A DNA stretch of 64,000 nt, from NCBI RefSeq assembly GCF_988242995.1, contig NZ_OZ547043.1. One strand, 5' to 3'. The position numbers are program-made. Below, piece by piece: positions 21,001 through 24,000 of the stretch. Position 1 is the first letter of the stretch, and each line of letters opens with the position of its first letter.

Positions 21001-24000
21001 CGCGCCGTTAGCCACCAGCGTACGGCAGACGTCGCCGCCATAAAAAATGGCAATAAACAGCAACGTCAGTGGCAATAATGTTGAAAATCGCCCTTGCCGC
21101 GGTTTTACCCGACTTAATGAAATGGCCAGCAGCGCCATCAACAATGCTGTCAGGCCACGGCTTTGTCGCCATTGCAGTTCGGCATGATCGGCTGGAAAGA
21201 CGGAGCGCGCCAGCTCCGTGACCGATTTTGCTTTGCGTTTGACGTTAGGGCTTTGATCCAGCGGATTCAGATGTAATTGCAGATTACGGTAGATCTGTTC
21301 GTTGTCGTCACGCCCCTGATGATCGAGAAGATAGGCGGTCCCGTTATGCAACATAACGGTCGGTTTCTCAGGTGATGGGTCAACCACATCAACCGAACGG
21401 GCGCGGAAAATGCGGGTTCGATTGGCAGTAGAAGTATAAATCAGCGCGTCAGTCAGGCGATTATTATCCTGATCAACCGTCTGCGAAAGGATCATTCGTC
21501 CGTTATCGTTAGTGTTAAATTTCTTTGCCCGCAACTGGCGAACATCCAGCTCCGACTGTGACTGTTGCTCCAGTTGATAAATCTGCGCATAAGCCCACGG
21601 ACGACCATACATCGACAGAAGGGTGACAAAAATACTTAGCGGTATCGCCAGATAAAGAACGGCTTTGTACAAGCGTCCCGGACTGCCCCCCGCCGCAGAA
21701 ATAGCGGTAATTTCCGAGTCGGTATACATCTGCCCTAGCGTCACGCCAACTGACACATACAGTCCAACAGGTAACAACATCTCCAGTGCAATCAGCACCT
21801 TGTAGAAAACAATATCCAGCACAACATCAAGAGCTAATGTCCCATTTGCCGCTTCGGTCAGATAACGCTGTGCGGAGTAGCTGGCGAAAATAAAGATCAG
21901 AAAACCGACGATAATCAGCACCAGACGGCGCGTACCACGCATGATGTAGTGTTCAACCAGCTTCATCTCACTAACGCCCTCAATCCTTTGAATTTTTTAT
22001 TCATTGATCAGTTTCTGCGCCAGCGCAATGACATGTTCTACCTCTTCCGGCGTCAGGCTGCCGTCCTTTGCCCACTGAATTTGCCCGGCTTTATTCAGCA
22101 CCAGAATGGTTGAACTCTGCTCCGGCAACCGCCAGGCAACGCGTCCCTGTCCATTGCCGTCAATAACGAATTGCGCCCACGGATAGCGGCGTTTATTTTT
22201 TTCGATTTTGCCAACGACAAAATAGCCAGTACCAAAAATGGCATCATCGGTGTTCACAATGGTGGTGGGCTGAAAACGATCCTGCGGAAAGTTTGCCGCT
22301 TCAACCGCTTTAATTAACAGTGAGTTCTTTTTCTTCGCCGACTTACGCCCGGCGATATACTGAATAATGCGAACTTTTCCCGCCAGCTGTGTGCTGTTCC
22401 ACTTTTGGTAGTGAATTTCGTCGTCGCTATTCAGAAGCAGCTCGCCGCCTTCCTGGATATAAACAGGGGTAACCGTTTTGCCAGTGACGAAATTGTGTGC
22501 CTGCACACCCGGGGCTAAGAGCATGATAATCAGCGCAATAATCAAACGAGATGACATCATTGCTCCGGTTATAGCGGAAAACGCGAAATCAGCAGCTCTA
22601 AGCGCTGGCGAATATCGCTATCCAGCGCCACCGGTGCATCATACGACTGGCGGTTTTCCATATCATCCGCCACCATGTCGTCGTGTTTATCCCCCATCAG
22701 GCCATTAATGGCGGCGAGGAAGCGGGAAATCTGTAACGCCTCTTTATTTTCAGGATCAAGCGATCTTAGGGTGTCGTAATAAGAAACCTGCTGGCTGATG
22801 ATTTTTCGCACATCATGAAATTCCCTGCCAGTTAGTCGCGGTTTGGCAATTATCTCTTTCAGGGTATGCATTTGCTTTTGCCGATAGGCAATAAAACCGC
22901 TTACGCTTTCTAACTGGCTATGGCGTAATGAATAGTTCACCAACGACCAGACCGGAGAGCTTAAATAAACCCGTAACAGGTTGCCGTAATACGACACAAT
23001 ATTTTTCTTACCGTTACGAAAGCCGTCCTGAAAACGCCCCAAAAAAACGGTCGTTTTGCCGAATAAAAATCCGGCCTGATGCTTTTTTAAATACAGCCGT
23101 TGCGCAAAACGCAGGTGCTTGTAGCGCGCTCGCATGTATTTAAATTGTTTGCGCTCATCAGCAGTCAGCTCATCGCCTTTGGCCTGTTTGCATATTAAAC
23201 GCAGTAACTCCTGGCGATTGACGCCATTGAGCCAGAATTGCAGGCATAACGCGTAATTATCATGGATGATTTCGGTGGTACAACTTAGTGCGATAGTCGG
23301 CGGCAAACTGACCTGTGCATCAACGACATCATCTTCTTCAATCGCAACAAATAGACGCTCGCTAGCCTCAAGCGGGAAATATTTTCTCATCATCAGGATT
23401 TCTCTCCGGCTGCGTTATAAAGCAAGGAATGGCGCTGAAAAAATGCCTTTAAGGTTGGAATTAGCGAGAGCACCACATCCAGACATTGCCCAGCGAAGTA
23501 AGCAAATGCAGCCCCCAGCACGCCAAACAGATGACAGAACATGAACAGCAATACGATGTAGCCGATTGAGGCGATGGTTTGCGCCACGAGAAAAGCACGC
23601 TGTTTTCCCGCCATCAATAGCAATGACTCCTGTGGGAAGCCCAGCATCGAAATCACAATTGCGCCCAGCATCACCTGAATCAGGTCATACGCTTCGAGAT
23701 ACTTAACGCCAAACACCAGCGAAATGAGCGGCTTGCCGACGATCAACACCGCGAGCGCCACCAGAATACCGATTCCGCCCGCCAGTAAACCGGACTTCAC
23801 GCCTAACAACCACGGTCTGGTGGTGCGCGGATCTAAACGCATCACCTCTGGGTAAAAACTTTTACCCAGTAAACCCGCTGGCGTTCCGGCGGCGTCGAAG
23901 AATGTCATGGCGATTTTAAATAACCCGGCGGCAGCGGGTCCTAACACGATCCCCACCAACACTGTGCTGCACGAGTTACGTGCCGACCAGATGGAGTGGG

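Follow-up and report, generated by a model that had tools for sequence, protein, structure and literature searches.

A gene for a protein of 274 amino acids (aa) and the adjacent ytfJ2 gene, both on the minus strand of an Escherichia coli chromosome, are accessory parts of the sphingolipid island of this species. The 274-aa protein is a diverged cytoplasmic member of the CHAD superfamily, made up of two four-helix bundles, and YtfJ2 is a paralogue of YtfJ, probably secreted by the Sec route. The two genes were analyzed in a stretch of 64,000 nucleotides (nt) of contig NZ_OZ547043.1 (assembly GCF_988242995.1), hereafter the window, which covers the region glc - yghO ... yghQRST - pitB - gss - hyb. 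As a tentative reading, which stays somewhat in doubt, the CHAD-like protein would serve as phosphate-binding partner in a module of kinases and a flippase by which an anionic ceramide is made and exported, and YtfJ2 an Enterobacterales-specific periplasmic helper placed upstream of the permeases LptF2 and LptG2 (LptF2G2).

The minus-strand genes follow each other in the order yghS, yghR, yghQ, 274-aa gene, ytfJ2, lptF2 and lptG2. Both reading frames lie where the original prediction, made from the DNA alone, had put them, tightly packed between Lpt-like permeases and yghQ. The stop codon of yghQ and the start codon of the 274-aa gene have one base in common (TGATG at 23393), and the 274-aa gene is translationally coupled to yghQ. 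An 8-nt spacer, which includes the sequence GGAG, separates the 274-aa stop from the ytfJ2 start, and 30 nt separate the ytfJ2 stop from the start of lptF2 at 21966; the stop of lptF2 and the RefSeq-type start of lptG2 overlap by 4 nt. Ratios of nonsynonymous to synonymous substitutions (dN/dS), calculated against orthologues, range from 0.06 to 0.11 in the case of the 274-aa gene and from 0.09 to 0.25 in that of ytfJ2. Both are real genes, under strong purifying selection.

The CHAD-like protein

The 274-aa sequence taken alone has no match in Pfam, NCBIfam or PDB sequences. The lack of a recognizable motif, remarked upon in the original prediction, is true of the single sequence but not of its family, the profile of which brings out a diverged CHAD domain. 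Relatives of the protein span Enterobacterales, and when 1.84 billion representative proteins were searched with a profile, 305 clusters were retrieved at E ≤ 1e-3. A family alignment and profile were built from 83 diverse relatives. Run against PDB sequences, the profile hits 6qv5 first (E = 1.1e-3), over two colinear stretches; residues K85/R88/K92/R95 and H193/R196 align with the H-x2-R-x3-R motifs of 6qv5, and the MGxxHD motif of the family with its LGxxND. R88, D123, H193 and R196 are invariant in the 83 sequences, and K92, R95, H105, K197, H237 and D238 are conserved in at least 90% of them. Twenty-five of the 83 relatives match PF05235 at E ≤ 0.01 (best value 1.7e-8), and no family other than CHAD is matched by more than one. 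Distant multi-domain relatives reach 30.7-40.9 bits against PF05235, the cut-off being 25.6. The name "CHAD domain-containing protein" is carried in UniRef by one homologue with 61% identity, a sign that automated annotation had already partly caught the CHAD identity.

The AlphaFold2 model of the protein is all-helical, with a mean confidence score (pLDDT) of 91.9, and the top match found by Foldseek is a CHAD structure. The two halves of the protein align in register, each keeping a stripe of K/H-x2-R-x3-K/R residues along a helix and a (L/M)G-x2-(N/H)D motif. The pair of pseudo-symmetric four-helix bundles, the basic charge and the presence of the two motifs in both halves are features shared with known CHAD proteins (PF05235; 6qv5, 3e0s, PptA (6rn5), the C-terminal domain of YgiF). 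In CHAD domains, mutation of the equivalent His and Arg residues abolishes the binding of polyphosphate (polyP) (10.1101/567040).

The isoelectric point of the protein is 9.2. Neither a signal peptide nor a membrane segment was found, and the highest Kyte-Doolittle value over 19-residue windows is 0.82. The protein is therefore cytoplasmic, and the periplasmic role first suggested for it has to be dropped. A homologue is labelled as a TPR (tetratricopeptide) repeat protein in SEED; this candidate identity was rejected, as neither the TPR motif nor a solenoid was found in the 274-aa protein. Being all-helical, the protein also differs from the beta-jellyroll proteins LptC and LptA.

CHAD-like domains of this family are also found in larger proteins. 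In two metagenomic proteins of about 980 aa (P0353 and P0355; locus L067, 10001-12931) a domain resembling APH/choline kinases is fused to two CHAD-like repeats, and these fusions provide an independent link between kinases and CHAD-like domains. P0242 (564 aa) consists of two CHAD-like units in tandem. The genomic surroundings of the distant members P0353 and P0309 are unrelated to sphingolipids, and uninformative.

The probably secreted paralogue YtfJ2

YtfJ2 matches both PF09695 (E = 1.3e-59; 200.9 bits, cut-off 24) and TIGR01626 (212.1 bits, cut-off 151.1), and is 54% identical to YtfJ of K-12 (b4216), as expected for the secreted YtfJ homologue that had been proposed. An n-h-c signal-peptide layout, judged by eye, is seen at the N-terminus, where MMSSR is followed by LIIALIIMLLAPGV and by VQA, ahead of HN, with the presumed cleavage site between VQA and H; the top hydrophobic window (2.03) starts at residue 1. 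In an alignment of 24 sequences of the YtfJ family the N-terminus is variable, and invariance begins at A21-H22-N23-F24. Core YtfJ and YtfJ2 share the same family hidden Markov models, a putative signal peptide, an invariant basic loop and mature domains free of cysteines. They differ in distribution: core ytfJ resides at a separate locus in 5417 of 5426 complete E. coli genomes, whereas ytfJ2 lies inside the sphingolipid operon, and its DNA, along with that of the 274-aa gene, is found in 4173 of the 5426 (~77%). Core ytfJ being near-universal, YtfJ2 is an extra paralogue. Recognition of the core ytfJ promoter by sigma-E has been reported, together with a listing of core YtfJ among periplasmic proteins (PMC4447067).

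The AlphaFold2 model of YtfJ2 (pLDDT 85.4) predicts a thioredoxin fold of the TlpA/DsbE type, closest to DsbE, ResA, TlpA and Bcp. YtfJ2 has no cysteine at all, and no column of the 24-sequence alignment has a conserved one, which excludes thiol chemistry; YtfJ2 is presumably redox-inactive. In the model a strand (residues 63-70) is followed by a loop (71-75) and a helix (76-89), and the invariant cationic loop IAGRxSAKxxN appears to occupy the place usually taken by CxxC. According to the model, YtfJ2 would thus differ from TlpA, DsbE (CcmG) and ResA, as from Bcp and AhpE, in having a Gly-Arg-x-Ser-Ala-Lys-x-x-Asn loop in place of CxxC or a peroxidatic Cys. A cationic site at the N-terminus of a helix suggests that YtfJ2 may bind anions. 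Like LptF2 and LptG2, YtfJ2 would be a copy of a housekeeping envelope protein set aside for a dedicated use, and would have been added only in Enterobacterales. The pair formed by YtfJ2 and YtfJ, beside the pairs LptF2/LptF and LptG2/LptG, in turn suggests that core YtfJ may act in the handling of outer-membrane lipids.

Conserved gene order and proposed roles

One genome per GTDB species was scanned, and 64 loci were obtained, in which the proteins of the island were then sought by tblastn. yghQ was detected in 58 loci, and in all 58 it lies on the same strand as the 274-aa gene and directly upstream of it; two of the six remaining loci are locus edges. Kinases similar to YghR, YghS or YghT (YghR/S/T) were found in 57 of the 64 loci, the 274-aa gene being nearly always accompanied by two or three kinases of the thymidylate kinase (dTMPK) superfamily. 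The Spt gene lies within 10 kb in 49 loci, so the anticipated co-occurrence with the Spt-like gene is borne out. YtfJ2 is present in 48 loci, all from Enterobacterales but one (the oddly labelled L038); in 47 of the 48 its gene comes directly after the 274-aa gene, in the same orientation. lptF2 is present in 45 loci, directly after YtfJ2 in 33 and elsewhere in the locus in 11; in the 11 loci in which lptF2G2 is relocated, YtfJ2 remains beside the CHAD-like gene and yghQ. The Xanthomonadales versions feature Spt, yghQ, the CHAD-like gene and kinases, and are devoid of both YtfJ2 and LptF2G2. Sphingomonadales have a compact minimal operon (kinase-kinase-yghQ-CHAD-like), and in an Acetobacteraceae locus yghQ directly precedes the CHAD-like gene, kinase-like matches being on the opposite strand. 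From this pattern, the conserved core is made up by the flippase, the CHAD-like protein and the dTMPK-like kinases, and YtfJ2 is not part of this core but an addition made in the enterobacterial versions. The original interpretation of the two genes is partly supported; the tightest partners of the 274-aa gene are YghQ and YghR/S/T, not the Lpt permeases.

YghR, YghS and YghT are mutually paralogous (34-42% identity), and each keeps the GxDGxGKST, DR[FY]PQ and RKPDH motifs. Searched singly against PDB sequences by phmmer, the three proteins gave P-loop noise only. The profile of the family matches canonical Tmk structures over the full length (E = 4.6e-6), and the PPK3-type structure 2plr/5h70 over the P-loop only (E = 0.037). 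As judged from sequence, a placement in the PPK3 clade is not supported.

Several components of the island have counterparts in Caulobacter crescentus, where LptC, LptF and LptG are each encoded a second time in the sphingolipid region CC_1152-CC_1168, which also has a candidate flippase, CC_1166 (PMC11324152). Homologues of Spt, AcpR, AasR, CerR and bCerS, additional LptF and LptG, and a candidate flippase of the MOP type are common to the two systems (PMC11324152). A ceramide kinase (CC_1160), the Tam41-like CC_1161, other head-group genes and the LptC2 candidate are described for Caulobacter (PMC11324152); neither LptC2 nor a glycosyl/glycerate transferase was found in the E. coli island as annotated. 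Conversely, the CHAD-like, YtfJ-like and dTMPK-like genes of E. coli are not described for Caulobacter (PMC11324152 and its supplement).

If the CHAD-like protein indeed binds phosphate on behalf of such a module, the YghR/S/T kinases would phosphorylate the head group of ceramide. The CHAD-like protein would hold the phosphate donor of the kinases, a polyphosphate or an oligophosphate, or else the head group once phosphorylated. By presenting the anionic lipid to YghQ, it could couple phosphorylation to flipping, and YghQ would flip the lipid. In Enterobacterales, YtfJ2 would act in the periplasm after YghQ and before LptF2G2, binding the anionic head group; LptF2G2, presumably powered by the housekeeping LptB, would then extract the lipid toward the outer membrane.

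A number of results weigh against this scheme. The 274-aa protein does not match PF05235 even at E ≤ 10, and no match was obtained by hhalign between the family profile and the atypical CHAD domain of YgiF. Canonical CHAD domains were reported to bind polyP and not other phosphate-containing ligands (10.1101/567040), a selectivity which argues against a lipid head group being bound directly. No specific affinity of YghR/S/T to a characterized lipid kinase was seen, and no obvious head-group transferase is encoded in the E. coli cluster. The versions of Xanthomonadales, Sphingomonadales and Acetobacteraceae do without YtfJ2, which therefore cannot be essential to the module. The YtfJ alignment matches E. 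coli CcmG by hhalign in the C-terminal beta-beta-alpha region only (E = 0.056), so that the equivalence of CxxC and basic loop is drawn solely from the topology of the model. Lastly, yghO is split in this strain by an IS4 element flanked by an 11-bp target-site duplication (as seen by blastn against an intact copy, and by the IS4 transposase domains); the pathway may consequently be broken here, inactive or truncated.

Other roles have been considered for the kinases and the CHAD-like protein. In the recently described archaeal PPK3 system (operon Saci_2017-2021) two dTMPK paralogues, Saci_2019 and Saci_2020, are encoded along with a CHAD protein (PMC12995831), and the island similarly encodes two or three paralogous dTMPK-superfamily proteins beside a CHAD-like protein, all three E. 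coli kinases having the P-loop and DR[FY]PQ. YghR/S/T might then be exapted Tmk paralogues making or consuming inorganic polyP in the manner of PPK3, with the CHAD-like protein as polyP-binding partner; polyP would be the product, or would energize and feed head-group synthesis and export, and the kinases would not act directly on the lipid. This is unlikely, because the family profile favours canonical Tmk over the PPK3-type structure, neither PPX, SixA nor Pst is encoded nearby, E. coli already has PPK1, and pure polyP metabolism leaves the strict association with a flippase and with Spt unexplained. The island departs from the PPK3 operon in having neither PPX nor SixA and in its association with ceramide synthesis and a lipid flippase. 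The 274-aa gene departs from known CHAD genes in lying outside the ppk/ppx/CYTH context and being tied, within a sphingolipid island, to a MOP flippase and dTMPK-like kinases. YghR/S/T, the CHAD-like protein and YghQ could also form a polyP-linked lipid-phosphorylation machine, producing a ceramide oligo- or polyphosphate or using polyP to drive ceramide phosphorylation, with export by YghQ, YtfJ2 and LptF2G2; this is a speculative and decidedly improbable combination. If true, it would imply a class of anionic outer-membrane lipids undescribed so far, present in most E. coli and invisible in K-12, and would offer a first way into the function of the YtfJ family. The translational coupling and the invariant adjacency to yghQ, as the SEED label of a homologue, which reads in full 'TPR repeat protein clustered with yghQ', would also suit a helical scaffold or adaptor for YghQ that does not bind phosphate, the CHAD ancestry being functionally irrelevant; there is only a small chance that this is the case.

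Alternatives for YtfJ2 are a redox role and a role in lipid transfer. The thioredoxin fold predicted for YtfJ2, nearest to DsbE, ResA, TlpA and Bcp, and the finding that CerR of Caulobacter is periplasmic (PMC11087976), might point to a thiol-disulfide oxidoreductase, a peroxiredoxin or the missing electron donor for the periplasmic ceramide reductase CerR. The lack of cysteines in YtfJ2 and its family largely refutes thiol chemistry, no cofactor motif is evident, and non-enterobacterial clusters keep a CerR homologue without YtfJ2, making a redox role very improbable. As the Caulobacter cluster has an LptC2 candidate and the E. coli island none, and ytfJ2 is immediately upstream of lptF2 in 33 loci, YtfJ2 might stand in for LptC or LptA as the periplasmic acceptor of lipid from LptF2G2, in the manner of the Caulobacter LptC2. 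The beta-jellyroll (OstA-like) of LptC and LptA is not found in YtfJ2, the fold of which appears thioredoxin-like, and where lptF2G2 is relocated YtfJ2 does not move along but is kept beside the CHAD-like gene and yghQ; the substitution is accordingly improbable. That both genes are unrelated passengers, placed in the island by accident, might be surmised from the orphan copies of the 274-aa family residing outside any island in Pluralibacter, and is hardly credible given the synteny across several orders of Proteobacteria, the overlapping or near-touching frames and the strong purifying selection. The thiol-redox reading and that of passenger genes can both be regarded as essentially excluded.

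The ceramide island is widespread, being present in about three quarters of the complete E. coli genomes and in many other Enterobacterales. Flippases and transporters of sphingolipids are still unidentified according to the Klein laboratory (PMC11087976), and the operon supplies concrete candidates for both. The CHAD identity turns a "hypothetical protein" into predictions, namely the binding of phosphate polymers and a partnership with kinases, and would bring the CHAD family into an envelope-lipid context, beyond the operons of polyP metabolism in which it has been described. In the literature searched, no paper names CHAD domains together with sphingolipids, and no functional study of either gene was found in the literature on yghQ, yghO, yghR/S/T and YtfJ.

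Layout and distribution of the island

The features of the island are listed in Table 1. Spt, on the opposite strand, scores 600 bits against NF047599 (cut-off 500). In the island (dihydro)ceramide is made by YghO, AasR, CerR, AcpR and Spt. The BL21(DE3) orthologues, ECD_02850-02854, corresponding to yghO (aca), aasR, epi, acpR and spt, have been experimentally studied; Spt, AcpR and AasR have been shown to be active, Spt_Ec producing 3-oxo-sphinganine from acyl-AcpR, and yghO has been proposed to encode the N-acyltransferase (PMC9386255). The minus-strand genes of the island are not discussed in that work (PMC9386255).

Table 1. Genes of the sphingolipid island and adjoining genes in the window
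Feature	Coordinates	Strand	Description
yghO (aca/bCerS homologue)	12745-15326	-	Interrupted by IS4 at 13684-15111
aasR (acyl-ACP synthetase/FAAL), epi/cerR (SDR), acpR (ACP), spt (serine palmitoyltransferase)	15698-19785	+	Ceramide-backbone genes; Pfam/NCBIfam
lptG2	19820-20899	-	Second LptG-type permease; PF03739, E = 1.9e-69
lptF2	20896-21966	-	Second LptF-type permease; PF03739, E = 7.9e-54; RefSeq annotation
ytfJ2	21997-22560	-	YtfJ-like, 187 aa; RefSeq picks the second ATG, at 22557 (186 aa)
274-aa gene (CHAD-like)	22569-23393	-	Cytoplasmic, basic, all-helical; diverged CHAD domain
yghQ	23393-24742	-	MOP/Wzx-type flippase; PF01943 and PF13440
yghR	24788-25546	-	P-loop kinase, thymidylate-kinase superfamily; sub-threshold Thymidylate_kin match, family profile
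yghS	25578-26291	-	Paralogous P-loop kinase, same superfamily as YghR
yghT	26465-27157	+	Third paralogous P-loop kinase, divergently transcribed
pitB	27206-28705		Phosphate transporter gene, adjoins yghT

The ends of spt and lptG2 converge, 34 nt apart (19786-19819). A weak stem-loop with a poor T-tract, at 19802-19816, is all that the terminator scan reported between the two genes; in both promoter and terminator scans, matches were no more numerous than in shuffled controls. The adjacency of pitB and yghT is found only in Escherichia, Pseudocitrobacter, Hafnia and Citrobacter loci. Being confined to four closely related genera, it was discounted as evidence of a link to phosphate, and probably reflects local synteny rather than a functional association.

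The DNA of the 274-aa and ytfJ2 genes is 99.6% identical to that of strain C4. In K-12 MG1655 (L071, 3129043-3132408; compared with 15698-23700 of the window) an IS5 element lies between yghO and a yghQ gene truncated to 355 aa. The 3' end of yghQ is missing there, along with aasR, epi, acpR, spt, lptG2, lptF2, ytfJ2 and the CHAD-like gene. This IS5-associated deletion explains why neither gene has a K-12 name.

Locus L038 is labelled as Martelella alba, an alphaproteobacterium, and hosts a full island of the enterobacterial type, YtfJ2 included, at ~61-78% identity; possible causes are misassignment or contamination of the contig, or horizontal transfer. In two Luteibacter loci (L045, 9968-11757; L052, 9119-10816) the CHAD-like gene is tandemly duplicated, the L045 copies being ~76% identical. 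A 284-aa open reading frame (ORF) without Pfam match is found 3' of the CHAD-like gene in L045 (11760-12614), and is matched in L049, L052, L053 and L055, hence in all five Xanthomonadales loci, at 45-62% identity; it could be a genuine accessory gene, or an ORF that merely shadows a coding sequence of the other strand. The ORFs located downstream of the CHAD-like gene in Novosphingobium are not conserved in other loci.

CHAD-like paralogues are also found away from the island. Second copies of the CHAD-like gene in the Pluralibacter loci L020 and L027 have no island genes nearby, the L020 copy being flanked by genes for a BCCT transporter, an M20 peptidase and an MFS transporter. In Carnimonas nigrificans (L056, 5939-13136) an orphan paralogue resides in a different envelope-modification module, together with a dTMPK-like kinase, an ArnT-like PMT_2 glycosyltransferase, a GT2 enzyme and an OmpR-type two-component system.

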